Source of the DNA: a candidate division FCPU426 bacterium
GTDB lineage: Bacteria > Oederibacteriota > PGYV01 > Palsa-1178
Length of the DNA stretch: 64,000 nt
Assembly: GCA_963840035.1 (NCBI GenBank)
Contig: CAWIXE010000002.1
Coordinates: 192,001-256,000 of the forward strand
Direction of reading: 5' to 3'
In this document: one piece after another, positions 26,213-52,549 of the stretch
How the letters are laid out: each line of letters starts with the position of its first letter
How positions within the stretch are numbered: position 1 is the first letter of the stretch
Notes under the pieces: generated by a model
The model's database searches: none
The model's input: only the letters and a program-made list of their open reading frames with translations
What the model was told of the DNA's origin: nothing
Position numbers and translations under genes: made by a program

Positions 26213-27061
26213 ATGGCTGAAAAAATGCATACCATAGCGGTCGTATCAAAACTTTTTTCAAACTACTTTGTCCATGAAGTGTTGCAGGGTATTGAGCCGC
26301 ATCTTTTTAAGGGACCTTATGAAGTGAATTATTACCCCACGACCGGCAGGATTGACATAGAAAAAGACATGCTGAAATCCATATTATATGAAAAACGCGC
26401 TGACGCGCTCATATCCATATCCACTCCCATGGACGAAGAGCTCCTGCAGGCTTATAAGAACTCAAACATCCCCGTGGTTTTCATCGAGGAGTCCTGCGAG
26501 GGCGGCCACACCGTAAAAGTGGACAATGTAAAGGGCGCTTACATCGCTACGGAGTACCTCATAAAAAAAGGGCATAAGAAGATCGGAATATTGGCCGGCG
26601 AATTTCTGGATAAAAGGACAAATTCCATGGTAATAGAGAGGCTCATAGGATACAGGAAGGCAATAGAGGATTATGGAATGGCGCTTAATGAAAAATTCGT
26701 GAAGCATGTGGCATATTACTCATTTGAAGAAGGACGCCAGAAAATGAAGGAACTCCTGGACGAAAAAGCCGGGCTCGACGCGGTATTCTGCGCGGCAGGG
26801 GACTTAACAGCCATGGGCGTCATAGAAGAGCTCCGCGAGAACCACATAAAAGTACCCGAAGATATTTCAGTGGTGGGGTATGACGACATATTAACGGCGC
26901 AGTATAATAAGCCGGCCCTTACAACGGTAAAGCAGCCTATAGAACAGATGGGCTCAGAGGCATTTGAGCTCGCCGTTAAGTGCATAACCGGGGAAGTAAG
27001 CATGGACGAACATAGACTTATAATACTGGACCCGAAGTTTATAGTGCGGAAGTCAGCGTAA
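26213..27061 (+). CDS. LacI-family sugar-binding domain protein lacking the N-terminal HTH
   Basis: Begins directly at TIAVV (first core strand); rest collinear with neighbouring LacI paralogs (ILYEKRADALISIS, AVFCAAGD, VPEDISVVGYDD, IVRKSA). Confidence 0.85.
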   Translation: MAEKMHTIAVVSKLFSNYFVHEVLQGIEPHLFKGPYEVNYYPTTGRIDIEKDMLKSILYEKRADALISISTPMDEELLQAYKNSNIPVVFIEESCEGGHTVKVDNVKGAYIATEYLIKKGHKKIGILAGEFLDKRTNSMVIERLIGYRKAIEDYGMALNEKFVKHVAYYSFEEGRQKMKELLDEKAGLDAVFCAAGDLTAMGVIEELRENHIKVPEDISVVGYDDILTAQYNKPALTTVKQPIEQMGSEAFELAVKCITGEVSMDEHRLIILDPKFIVRKSA

Positions 27062-27115: not shown

Positions 27116-27325
27116 GGTGGCTCAAGGTGGGTGGGAGGGCTTAAACGGCTCAAGTGGTTATGAAGGAAATTGGTTGGCTCAATGTGGGTGGGAAGGCTTA
27201 AACGGCTCAAGTGGTTGTGAAGGAAGCTGGGTGGCTCAAGGTGGGTGGGAAGGCTTAGACAGCTCAAGTGTTTTGAAGGAAGCTGGGTGGCTCAAGGTAT
27301 TGGGATAGCTTTGAAGGCTCAAGGG
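27116..27325. repeat. Tandem ~57-bp G-rich repeats (GGCTCAAG core), about 3.5 units
   Basis: Units start at 27116, 27173, 27230 and 27286. Confidence 0.85.
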
Positions 27326-27337
27326 AAATGGGGGGGT

Positions 27338-27715
27338 ATGAAAACATTTGAGGACTTGATTGTATATCAGGAGGCAAGAAAATTAATAAATGAGGTTTAT
27401 GCTTTAACAAATAGCGGGGGATTTGGAAGGGATTTTGATTTGGTCAGGCAGATACGCAGGGCAGCGGTTTCTATTGCGGCAAATGTGGCTGAAGGTTTTG
27501 AAAGAGGGTCAAATACGGAATTTATTCAATACCTGTATATAGCTAAAGGCTCCTGCGGAGAATTACGAGTCGAACTTGGAATCGCTTGTGATCAAAAATA
27601 TATTGAAGTTGTTGATTTTAACAGGTTAAAAGAAAAATGCGTTAGTGTCAGCTCAATGTTAAGTAATTTTATCAAAAGTTTGAAAAAATCAGGACTTAAA
27701 GGCCCAAAAAGGTAA
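27338..27715 (+). CDS. Four-helix-bundle protein (23S rRNA IVP/bAvd-like family)
   Basis: FEDLIVYQEA, QIRRAAVSIAANVAEGFER, FIQYLYIAKGSCGE; 125 aa from ATG 27338. Confidence 0.92.
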   Translation: MKTFEDLIVYQEARKLINEVYALTNSGGFGRDFDLVRQIRRAAVSIAANVAEGFERGSNTEFIQYLYIAKGSCGELRVELGIACDQKYIEVVDFNRLKEKCVSVSSMLSNFIKSLKKSGLKGPKR

Positions 27716-27725
27716 TGGCTGTTGT

Positions 27726-27837
27726 GCCAACCAACGTTCCATCACACCCACTTGAGCCTTGAGCCAACCAACGTTCTATCACACCCACTTGAGCCTTGAG
27801 CCAACCAACGTTCCATCACATCCACTTGAGCCTTGAG
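27726..27837. repeat. Three tandem 37-bp C-rich repeats, inverted relative to the upstream array
   Basis: gccaaccaacgttccatcacacccacttgagccttga at 27726, 27763 and 27800; reverse complement matches the ggctcaagtggttgtgaaggaagctgggtggc segments upstream. Confidence 0.88.
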
Positions 27838-27873
27838 ACAACCATGTTTTTAATAACCAACATAAAAATCCCC

Positions 27874-27923
27874 TTGCATTTTCACAATGAAAATGGTACT
27901 ATTATTTTAGTTTAGCGCTAAAC
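27874..27923 (+). promoter_or_regulatory. Promoter + operator GTTTAGCGCTAAAC upstream of LacI 28214 (probable autoregulation)
   Basis: TTGCAT(27874)-17-TACTAT(27897) with TG extension; palindrome at 27910-27923. Confidence 0.8.
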
Positions 27924-27998
27924 CAAATTAGGCATGTTTAACGTTAAGAGTTGAAAGTTTAGGGTTATAGACATTGTTAAGAAGATGTGTTTACAGTT

Positions 27999-28113
27999 TG
28001 TCATTGCGAGGAGCCGCAGTTGGCCTATGGCGACGAAGCAATCTCGTTTTCTCCTTCTGGAACAGCGAGATTGCTTCGTCGGCAAGTAACAAAAACGCCT
28101 CCTCGCAATGACA
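27999..28113. repeat. TGTCATTGCGAG REP-like inverted doublet
   Basis: tgtcattgcgaggag...gacgaagcaatctcg paired with cgagattgcttcgtc...ctcctcgcaatgaca; same family as 36981-37890. Confidence 0.88.
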
Positions 28114-28213
28114 AGCATAAGACTATAAACAGAACATGTTAACATTAAAGGTTATAGACAGGAATGTATCTGCTGTAACCATAAATTTTAAACTGTATTA
28201 AAGGAGGCCGTTC

Positions 28214-29221
28214 ATGAGCATCACGATTAAAGACGTCGCAAAGGCCGCGGGAGTTTCTCATACGACTGTTTCCATGGTCATACATAATGACAAAAGAATA
28301 ACCGCCGACACAAAAAAGAAAGTACAGGCTGCCATAGAAGACCTGAAATACCACCCGAATTATCTGGCCCGCGGGCTGGTGCAGGGCAAGTCAAATAACA
28401 TAGCGATTATGGCTACTTTTTTTTCCTCGTTTTTTGAGATGAATTTTTTGAAAGGAATAGAACAGCAAATCGGGGATTCCGAGTACCAGATAAATGAGTA
28501 TTCCACCAGGGGCAAGCCCGGGGTAAAGAAACATATCATGGAGCAGATATTATACGGGAAGAGGGCTGACGCGCTCATATCTCTTTCAATAAAGCCGGAT
28601 AAGGAAACGCTGGAAGAGTTCAAAAACAACGGTATTCCCGTGATTTTAATAGAGGAAGAAATGAAGGGCGCCCATTCGCTTAAGACGGATAATTACAAAG
28701 GCGGCTTCATGGCCACGGAGTACCTCCTCCAGAAATCGAGAAAAAAGATCGGCATTATAGTGGGCCAGATAAAAGGCGAAGAAGTCGGGACCAGCCCGGA
28801 AGACCGGTTCAAAGGTTATAAAAAGGCCCTTGATGAATTCAATGTCCCGTTTGACCCGAATCTTGTGTATGAAGTAAAGGATTTTGATTTTAAGGACGGA
28901 AAAGAAGGGCTCAAAAAATTCCTTTCGTCCGTAAAAAAACTTGACGCTGTTTTTTGCGCTGCCGGTGACTTTACCGCGATGGGCGTGCTGGAAGAGGCCC
29001 GAAAAATGGGCATTAAGATACCCCAGGACCTGGCGGTAGTCGGATATGATGACCTTGAAATGTCCGCTGTGGTAAACCCGCCGCTGACAACGATAAAGCA
29101 GTCAATAACCGAGATCGGGGCTGAAGCCTTTAAGATAGCGGTAGCTGCAGTTGAAGGCAAATTAAAGGAAACTAAGCACATTGTTTTGCAGCCGGAACTG
29201 GTTGTACGGGAAAGTGCGTAA
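28214..29221 (+). CDS. LacI-family transcriptional regulator
   Basis: ITIKDVAKAAGVSHTTVSMV; close paralog of 17016. Confidence 0.95.
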   Translation: MSITIKDVAKAAGVSHTTVSMVIHNDKRITADTKKKVQAAIEDLKYHPNYLARGLVQGKSNNIAIMATFFSSFFEMNFLKGIEQQIGDSEYQINEYSTRGKPGVKKHIMEQILYGKRADALISLSIKPDKETLEEFKNNGIPVILIEEEMKGAHSLKTDNYKGGFMATEYLLQKSRKKIGIIVGQIKGEEVGTSPEDRFKGYKKALDEFNVPFDPNLVYEVKDFDFKDGKEGLKKFLSSVKKLDAVFCAAGDFTAMGVLEEARKMGIKIPQDLAVVGYDDLEMSAVVNPPLTTIKQSITEIGAEAFKIAVAAVEGKLKETKHIVLQPELVVRESA

Positions 29222-37392: not shown

Positions 37393-37890
37393 TGTCATTG
37401 CGAGGAGCCGTTTTAGCCTTGTGGTGACGAAGCAATCTCGGTTTCATCGATAAGACTTAAGCATAGTCCTGCATAAGAACAGAGATTGCTTCGTCGCTGA
37501 GGGGATTGCTCCTCGCAATGACAGGCAAACAAAGATAAGCTTCAAACTGTTTAAGATTGTCATTGATGGCTGATTCTGTCATTGCGAGGAGGCGTTCTTG
37601 ATTTATGCCGACGAAGCAATCCCAGTTCCACCGATAAGCCTTACAACAAAGTACCTGCATAAGAACAGAGATTGCTTCGTCGCTGAGGGGCGCGCTCCTC
37701 GCAATGACAGGCAAACAAAGATAAGCCTTACAACAAAGTGCCTGCATAAGAACAGAGATTGCTTCGTCGCTGAGGAGCTCGCTCCTCGCAATGACAGGCA
37801 AACAAAGATAAGCCTTACAACAAAGTGCCTGCATAAGAACAGAGATTGCTTCGTCGCTGAGGAGCTCGCTCCTCGCAATGACAGGCAAAC
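37393..37890. repeat. Cluster of six TGTCATTGCGAG REP-like elements: two inverted doublets, the second extended into three tandem 87-bp units
   Basis: Forward copies at 37393 and 37577; reverse copies ending 37523, 37709, ~37796 and ~37883; tandem units start at 37633, 37720 and 37807. Confidence 0.92.
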
Positions 37891-37915
37891 ATAAAAAAAC
37901 AACAGGAGAAAAACA

Positions 37916-48531: not shown

Positions 48532-48745
48532 ACGTTAGGCTCAAAGCTCAAGCGGAAGCAGGAAGCGTGCGGGCTCAAGCGCTCAAGGGGTTGTTTGGCT
48601 TTTGTAGGCTGCATCCCCTTAATCCGTTTTAAGGCCACGCTCAGTTGATTATTTGATATTAATCTGCTATATTTATATAAGCTAATCATACTTGTCCGAC
48701 AAAATCCGGCTAAAAAATACTATATTCCTTTAAAAAGGAGTTACC

Positions 48746-51862: not shown

Positions 51863-52549
51863 CCTTAACCCTTACCCTTAATTCTTATCCTTAGCTCTTG
51901 GACCTGGTTTTTAAGGTCCAAAGGCTAAGGGTAAGGGATAAGGATAAGGGTTAAGGCCGCCTTAACCCTTACCCTTAATTCTTATCCTTAGCTCTTGGAT
52001 CTGGTTTTTAAGGTCCAAAGGCTAAGGGTAAGGGATAAGGATAAGGGTTAAGGCCGCCTTAACCCTTACCCTTAATTCTTATCCTTAGCTCTTGGATCTG
52101 GTTTTTAAGGTCCAAAGGCTAAGGGTAAGGGATAAGGATAAGGATAAGGGTTAAGGCTGCCTTAACCCTTACCCTTAATTTTTATCCTTAGCTCTTGGAT
52201 CTGGTTTTTAAGGTCTAAAGGCTAAGGATAAGGGATAAGGATAAGGGTTAAGGCCGCCTTAACCCTTACCCTTAATTCTTATCCTTAGCTCTTGGACCTG
52301 GTTTTTAAGGTCCAAAGGCTAAGGGTAAGGGATAAGGATAAGGGTTAAGGCCGCCTTAACCCTTACCCTTAATTCTTATCCTTAGCTCTTGGACCTGGTT
52401 TTTAAGGTCCAAAGGCTAAGGCTAAGGGTAAGGGATAAAGATAAGGGTTAAGGCAGCCTTAACCCTTACCCTTAATTCTTATCCTTAGCTCTTGGATCTG
52501 GTTTTTAAGGTCCAAAGGCTAAGGATAAGGGATAAGGATAAGGGTTAAG
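51863..52549. repeat. Tandem array of 7 palindromic units of 97-103 bp (last slightly truncated)
   Basis: Units start at 51863, 51960, 52057, 52160, 52257, 52354 and 52457. Each reads ccttaacccttaccc...ttggacc-tggtttttaa-ggtccaa...gggttaagg. Confidence 0.95.

Follow-up and report, generated by a model that had tools for sequence, protein, structure and literature searches.

The window analysed here, a 64,000-nucleotide stretch of DNA from a candidate division FCPU426 bacterium, carries a small gene for a four-helix-bundle protein that is enclosed between two inverted tandem-repeat arrays (together, the 'cassette'). The features needed to follow the argument, each with its coordinates in the window and its strand, are these:

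26213..27061, + strand: upstream gene for a LacI-type sugar-binding domain; native, found in relatives too
27116..27323, + strand: 5' arm, a G-rich tandem array of alternating 28- and 29-nt units (a 57-nt dimer), each opening with GGCTCAA(G)
27330..27336, + strand: ribosome-binding site (a G-run read from the sequence), directly after the final core of the 5' arm
27338..27715, + strand: four-helix-bundle gene, 125 aa, PF05635 / TIGR02436, intact, 37% GC
27722..27844, - strand: 3' arm, a C-rich array of 37-nt units, reverse-complementary to the 5' arm
27866..27923, + strand: native promoter-like region and TTTAGCGCTAAA palindrome ahead of the second LacI gene, with counterparts in the relatives G001 and G006
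28214..29221, + strand: downstream LacI regulator, full-length
48538..48590, + strand: gene-less single arm with four GCTCAA cores, 7 nt past the stop codon of an efflux-pump gene

Repeat detection resolves the 5' arm as an array with a 57-nt period (3.2 copies, 90% matches over 27116-27298), which amounts to roughly 3.5 units overall because the last core ends at 27323, and the 3' arm as an array with a 37-nt period (3.3 copies, 94% matches over 27722-27844). An earlier description of this DNA, made from its letters alone (the 'sequence-only reading'), had placed a comparatively AT-rich four-helix-bundle gene between about 3.5 G-rich units of 57 bp and three C-rich units of 37 bp, complementary to one another in many registers; all of this is borne out, with the correction that the downstream array ends at 27844 and not at 27837. 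Every unit opens with GGCTCAA, and this core is near-invariant, while the rest of the unit is 78% identical on average. The 28-nt unit of the 5' arm contains a degenerate second core, 9 nt ahead of the next one, and the 37-nt unit of the 3' arm, read in reverse complement, consists of the 5' unit in a 30-nt version together with one extra heptamer core. Successive cores in the cassette's arms are 19-30 nt apart, as against every 7 nt in heptamer arrays. The units are non-palindromic and have no GTAG end (the unit of a REPIN-RAYT system is a short palindrome with a GTAG-type end).

The two arms are 79-100% complementary across many registers, and in predicted folding their RNA duplex reaches -136.7 kcal/mol and includes one unbroken helix of some 23 pairs. 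A set of 200 dinucleotide shuffles gives -87.9 +/- 5.4, the best among them -102.9. The antisense duplex, predicted at -148.6 kcal/mol, is as stable as the sense duplex or more so. The folding of the whole cassette region has a z-score of -4.6 against 20 shuffles. The gene is 37% GC, the arms 51-52% and the neighbouring genes 46%. A pattern match finds four close G-runs in the 28-nt units at 27126-27139 and 27240-27253, which might fold into a two-tier quadruplex while the 3' arm has yet to be transcribed. A CRISPR-like array was considered and rejected, since the would-be spacers are tandem copies without uniqueness. Neither a target-site duplication nor a sharp terminus was seen in the cassette or its gene-less copies, whose ends are ragged and for which the relatives compared belong to other genera. 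The cassette region has no rRNA match and no Rfam match at the gathering score (the sole match, below threshold, is of a miRNA model to a neighbouring hairpin), a promoter scan of the region gave hits at chance level (8 versus 5.0 +/- 2.3), and no terminator on the + strand was found between the upstream gene and the cassette.

The encoded protein matches PF05635 (E 4e-33, 114 bits against a cut-off of 33.8) and the TIGR02436 profile (E 4e-32, 111 bits against a cut-off of 24); PF05635 is otherwise the sole domain matched, and a GIY-YIG nuclease domain is absent. Its annotated start is backed by a homolog, P0003, of 125 aa and 74% identical from residue 1. The fold of the structure model (pLDDT 94) points to no catalytic function, and we know of no catalytic function for the PF05635 / TIGR02436 family. 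The best structural matches of the model include XCC0516 (2GSC; the top Foldseek match, TM 0.84) and BT_0352 (2RLD), both of them structures with five chains, and Avd (4DWL) is a weaker match (Foldseek E 0.021, TM 0.76, 13% identity). The kinship that the sequence-only reading had named, to the proteins of rRNA intervening sequences (IVSs) and to the Avd protein of diversity-generating retroelements (DGRs), stands, the fold matching that of the IVS protein S23p and Avd being a distant structural match. XCC0516 is described in passages of PMC4990558 as a pentameric ring, and by analogy the protein may form a homopentamer, a five-part ring like XCC0516 and Avd. A search of viral contigs with this protein's pattern gave 55 pattern matches and no confirmed relative.

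Comparison of the insertion site drew upon seven relatives from the same family, six of which have the upstream LacI-type gene, and in all six the cassette is absent after that gene. The gap between the two LacI genes measures about 150, 220 and 250 nt in G001, G005 and G006, as opposed to about 1150 nt in this genome; in G002 and G003 the upstream gene is followed directly by other genes, and in G007 no arm lies within the 143 nt between the upstream gene and the end of the contig. Since G001 and G006 possess equivalents of the promoter-like region and palindrome, the cassette can be said to have entered between the upstream stop codon and the promoter, with 27866-27923 as the right limit of the insertion. 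The cassette is a lineage-specific insertion outside rRNA, and gene and flanks are not fixed across relatives. The stop codon of the upstream gene is, moreover, a recurrent landing site for repeats: at the cassette's insertion spot G006 has a gene-less hairpin of another motif, and three order-level relatives have a single arm of a third motif. A DNA sequencing run that contains a small share of a near relative covers parts of both neighbouring genes, roughly 3x deep and with some 95% identity, and yields no joint across the cassette.

Several further features of the neighbourhood deserve mention. The upstream gene (26213-27061) encodes the LacI sugar-binding domain alone, starts at the same position in relatives and adjoins the full LacI gene; the statement that the cassette lies between two LacI genes therefore holds for the downstream gene and must be narrowed for the upstream one, which has no match to a DNA-binding domain. 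A palindromic element of about 170 nt, of the GTCATTGCGAG type and with a 49-nt inverted repeat, occupies 27976-28148 after the LacI promoter; at least five further copies are present in the genome at 93-97% identity, and related tandem copies lie at 37393-37891. At 51863-52549 there are seven tandem units of 97 nt, in each of which 6-7-nt subrepeats (TAAGGG type) make up a hairpin.

Nine other GGCTCAA elements, picked by eye, were found in the genome, four of them two-armed and five single-armed. The arm at 48538-48590, which the sequence-only reading had correctly noted as a recurrence of the core without the gene, has no inverted partner nearby and is absent from the equivalent place in G001. 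That reading recognised this one gene-less arm, and neither the cassette's membership in a gene-less family nor the roughly 200 hairpins of other motifs in the same genome. Spaced GGCTCAA triplets give 14 matches, all of them at C2:219-280 kb of this genome (C2 being the contig from which the window is taken), and none in the other 98 genomes of the phylum that were searched. The 14-mers of the arms have 47 matches outside the cassette, 36 of these in three gene-less elements within 62 kb (at 256, 262 and 280 kb), with about 6 expected by chance. The 256-kb and 262-kb elements have 40 nt in common and resemble each other in their loops, which indicates that whole elements were copied. Four of the nine gene-less elements lie no more than 62 kb from the cassette, an arrangement equalled in 2 of 20000 permutations (for a list made by eye and a distance chosen post hoc); among 12 other repeat families of the genome, just two cluster locally at p < 0.05 and ten are unclustered. 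An imported island as the cause of this clustering is disfavoured, as the order LacI...efflux...aspS is common to the family relatives; the genes at 255-263 kb are, for their part, without synteny. Ahead of aspS (C2:280.3 kb), a gene-less copy is flanked by a conserved terminator-like hairpin on one side and by the ribosome-binding site on the other; all seven family genomes lack it and have a clean empty site instead. The units of gene-less copies are 25, 32 and 26-27 nt long (compared to 57 and 37 nt in the cassette), and the genes beside these sites are functionally unrelated to one another. A search of metagenomic and viral sequences for GGCTCAAG triplets returned 249 loci, most of which resemble coding repeats or have short flanks, and none had a four-helix-bundle gene; 90 had 600-nt flanks on both sides, and 22 of those 90 had a non-codon spacing.

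The genome encodes seven paralogs above the Pfam cut-off, this gene included. Three of the remaining six lie within inverted heptamer arrays whose motifs differ (two from repeat detection, one read by eye), so that inverted flanks are not peculiar to this locus, and every enclosed paralog's motif also has gene-less copies in the genome. The other three, L003, L004 and L005 (G000:C2:73387, C3:492535 and C2:1127107), are unenclosed and have an upstream hairpin alone, in each case a complete repeat hairpin and in one a 138-nt tandem; L003 and L005, as placed on the protein tree, form a well-supported branch of their own. A crude survey, in which gene calls were simple ORF picks, counted about 207 gene-less inverted heptamer hairpins of many motifs. 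Few other genes in the genome are enclosed by such arrays, and most heptamer families enclose no four-helix-bundle gene, which is true even of the largest, with about 68 copies.

These hairpins also have other occupants. All three copies of one insertion sequence (G000:C3:54914-56080, C3:228241-229402 and C2:827245-828438) have entered the 5' arm of AATTACT hairpins, each at an identical point and apparently with duplication of 3 nt; a second insertion sequence has two of its four copies in ATTCTAG arms and a third in an ATTCTAG loop (C2:388085, C2:169441, C1:417093). From the look of the protein, the insertion sequences in hairpins may be IS30-like. Four of six ATTCTAG hairpins are found within 46 kb (G000:C3:384998-431035), with no four-helix-bundle gene found beside them, and the GTCATTGCGAG-type element occupies several hairpin loops. 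Insertion sequences were rejected as mobilisers of the hairpins, since they have their own ends, and so were the Y1 transposases, none of whose eight genes has these arrays within its 250-nt flanks.

A survey of the wider protein class began from 118 loci with relatives of the protein, of which 89 remained after duplicates, short matches and short flanks were removed. A repeated inverted 6-mer spans the gene in 74 of these 89 loci (this one included), versus 32 of 89 for the direct orientation and 410 of 2000 cross-locus control pairs. On a quick tree the protein falls within a group of 18 rows (support 92, not starred), in which the repeat period is 9, 10 or 8 in 13 rows, 7 in one and unassigned in four; non-heptamer spacing therefore runs in the protein's lineage. 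Repeat period clusters on that tree (33 changes versus 44.0 when shuffled, 0 of 200 shuffles, with automatic and noisy labels), a result that is expected from co-inheritance alone. A 7-mer from another cassette's arms has 129, 22 and 1 matches within a single genus and one match in the other 96 genomes, and a 9-mer from a further cassette has 3-232 matches in all 11 genomes of two families and three single matches in the other 88; these multiplied motifs amount to a consistent pattern and not to a statistical test, because the genomes are non-independent kin and abundant repeats lie near any gene. Some cassettes occupy a shared locus in several genomes, and their arms have diverged (L387, L390, L391, L394, L399; L107, L108, L118, L388); they stand ahead of what we take to be a purC-like gene (family f17) or a DNA polymerase IV-like gene (several families). 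For those that stay at one locus across genera, long-term residence fits better than active movement.

Since the gap is empty in relatives and roughly nine gene-less elements of the same repeat exist in the genome, the gene is likely to be part of a repeat system that spreads itself. The specific explanation that we tentatively favour, although it is slightly more apt to fail than to succeed, is that the small GGCTCAA family of gene-less elements has the cassette as its one member with a gene, and that its protein recognises the elements and helps to spread them together with a host enzyme. According to this model, the protein ring would bind the GGCTCAA core in single-stranded DNA or RNA, the arms would fold back over the gene or loop, and a host enzyme would perform the cutting and joining. 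The resulting hairpins would land in intergenic gaps, mostly right after a stop codon or terminator, and each arm might afterwards lengthen by local slippage, which would explain the differing unit lengths of the cassette and its gene-less copies. The GGCTCAA family is probably small, young and clustered beside its own gene. A bolder generalisation, which we regard as unlikely, would have four-helix-bundle (IVS/Avd-like) proteins read specific sequences and cause their own hairpins to be copied, selfishly and without a transposase or reverse transcriptase of their own; they would be the missing partner both of the unexplained 7-9-nt intergenic repeats in bacteria and of rRNA IVSs, this cassette, with its wide core spacing and the young offspring clustered near it, would represent a family at an early stage, and the core, not the 7-nt period, would be what is read.

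Alternatively, the arms might pair in mRNA and RNase III might cut out the gene-bearing loop, as in an IVS, with the hairpins serving as signals for mRNA processing or stability. Passages of PMC4990558 provide the precedent of RNase III in IVSs. The stable predicted duplex of the arms, with its long uninterrupted helix, and the stretch without a terminator between the upstream gene and the cassette are in keeping with such processing, as is the position of the genome's hairpins: between co-directional genes, 144 of 163 begin no more than 20 nt past the upstream stop codon, as do 45 of the 61 that lie in gaps with slack (12.4 expected). The sense strand also folds lower in 100 elements versus 62, with a small mean difference. 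On the other side, G-U and A-C mismatches in the gene-less hairpins stand at 94:88 (p 0.71), with no strand bias, and the cassette's antisense duplex equals or exceeds its sense duplex in stability. These two results leave unsupported so far the RNA excision implied by the sequence-only reading of an IVS-like mobile or excisable cassette, and the empty sites uphold an insertion outside rRNA. The location outside an rRNA gene and the lack of an Rfam match at the gathering score weigh further against processing, and no reverse transcriptase for returning RNA to DNA was found in the genome (98% complete; no PF00078 match). Processing of this kind, which we judge unlikely as the explanation, can coexist with the favoured one, and by itself puts no new copies into DNA.

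It is also conceivable, if quite unlikely in our estimation, that the repeats spread independently of the protein by slippage, gene conversion or repair, and that the gene is a passenger, moving through recombination between like arms or by lodging in hairpin loops as insertion sequences do here. The abundance of gene-less hairpins of many motifs, mostly without a matching gene, would be accounted for in this manner, as would the insertion sequences and GTCATTGCGAG-type elements that occupy arms and loops, the different repeat families found at the same stop codon in G006 and the order-level relatives, and the cassettes that remain at one locus across several genera. What a passenger leaves unexplained is the enclosure of most relatives of one gene family while few other genes are enclosed, the conservation of cores over spacers, and the nearness of the closest gene-less copies to the cassette. 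A role for the protein as an ordinary regulator of the host, controlling its own gene and adjacent transcripts by way of the arms, with the scattered elements as regulatory sites and not mobile offspring, would agree with the intact gene, with the strong ribosome-binding site beside the last core and with the placement of elements at transcript junctions; given that gene and sites are recent and lineage-specific, and that the genes beside the sites are unrelated in function, we consider it highly improbable.

Two long-standing unknowns meet at this locus: the function of a very large family of 'hypothetical' proteins and the origin of bacterial intergenic heptamer repeats. The locus offers a cheap test of a link between them, comprising one protein of 125 aa, a core of 7-8 nt that is rare elsewhere, clean empty sites, and three enclosed paralogs of the same genome whose differing cores serve as specificity controls. 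Should binding prove motif-specific, the family would gain a function, and programmable readers of nucleic acids, a class of their own, would be at hand; should it not, the cassette would be an ordinary passenger among repeats.

Comparison with known systems places the cassette near several of them. ORF-bearing IVSs of 23S rRNA, encoding S23p, are described for Coxiella and Leptospira in passages of PMC4990558; like them, the cassette has complementary borders that pair as a stem, with a protein of the same family encoded in the loop, and a patchy distribution. Identity with an rRNA IVS was rejected, as the cassette lies between two protein-coding genes and has no rRNA match; it differs also in its borders, which are tandem arrays with many pairing registers, and in its gene-less siblings. 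DGRs share a similar fold with it through Avd, described in part of PMC6182149 as a pentamer that binds a specific stretch of RNA; in contrast to a DGR, sequence identity to Avd is low and no template/variable repeat pair was seen, and identity with a DGR was rejected because no reverse transcriptase was found in the genome. The Ssn genes, flanked by their own target repeats (SRM/NTS) according to passages of PMC11893778, are similarly small genes between repeats whose family has members dispersed over the genome as well; in those passages, however, Ssn is a GIY-YIG nuclease with demonstrated binding and cleavage, whereas the four-helix bundle here is known from sequence and a model. Heptamer repeats are reported as intergenic in Xanthomonas, Nostoc and Beggiatoaceae in parts of PMC4692102 and PMC4679880, where they resemble the present arms in being arrays of short units, often in convergent inverted pairs and with quadruplex-like runs in the G-rich arm, and differ from them in lacking the wide spacing of cores; those portions of the two main texts make no mention of four-helix-bundle or S23 genes. 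No description of such a cassette outside rRNA was found in the open-access literature that was covered. A further parallel in organisation may be drawn with REPIN-RAYT systems ('REPtrons'), in which each RAYT gene is adjoined by a distinct REPIN cluster (a passage of PMC3116915). As in those systems, the gene is flanked by inverted repeats, gene-less intergenic doublets and singlets are genome-specific, and several independent families coexist in one genome; gene-less inverted extragenic doublets that carry the gene's flanking motif are likewise present here. Unlike a RAYT, the cassette's gene encodes no HUH/Y1 transposase, its arms repeat a non-palindromic 7-8-nt core in tandem, and the genome's eight Y1 transposases carry other repeats, their own. 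Taken singly, the protein family, the rRNA IVS and the intergenic heptamer repeat are already known; what this locus contributes is the wide spacing of the cores, a small and probably young family clustered by its gene, and clean empty sites.
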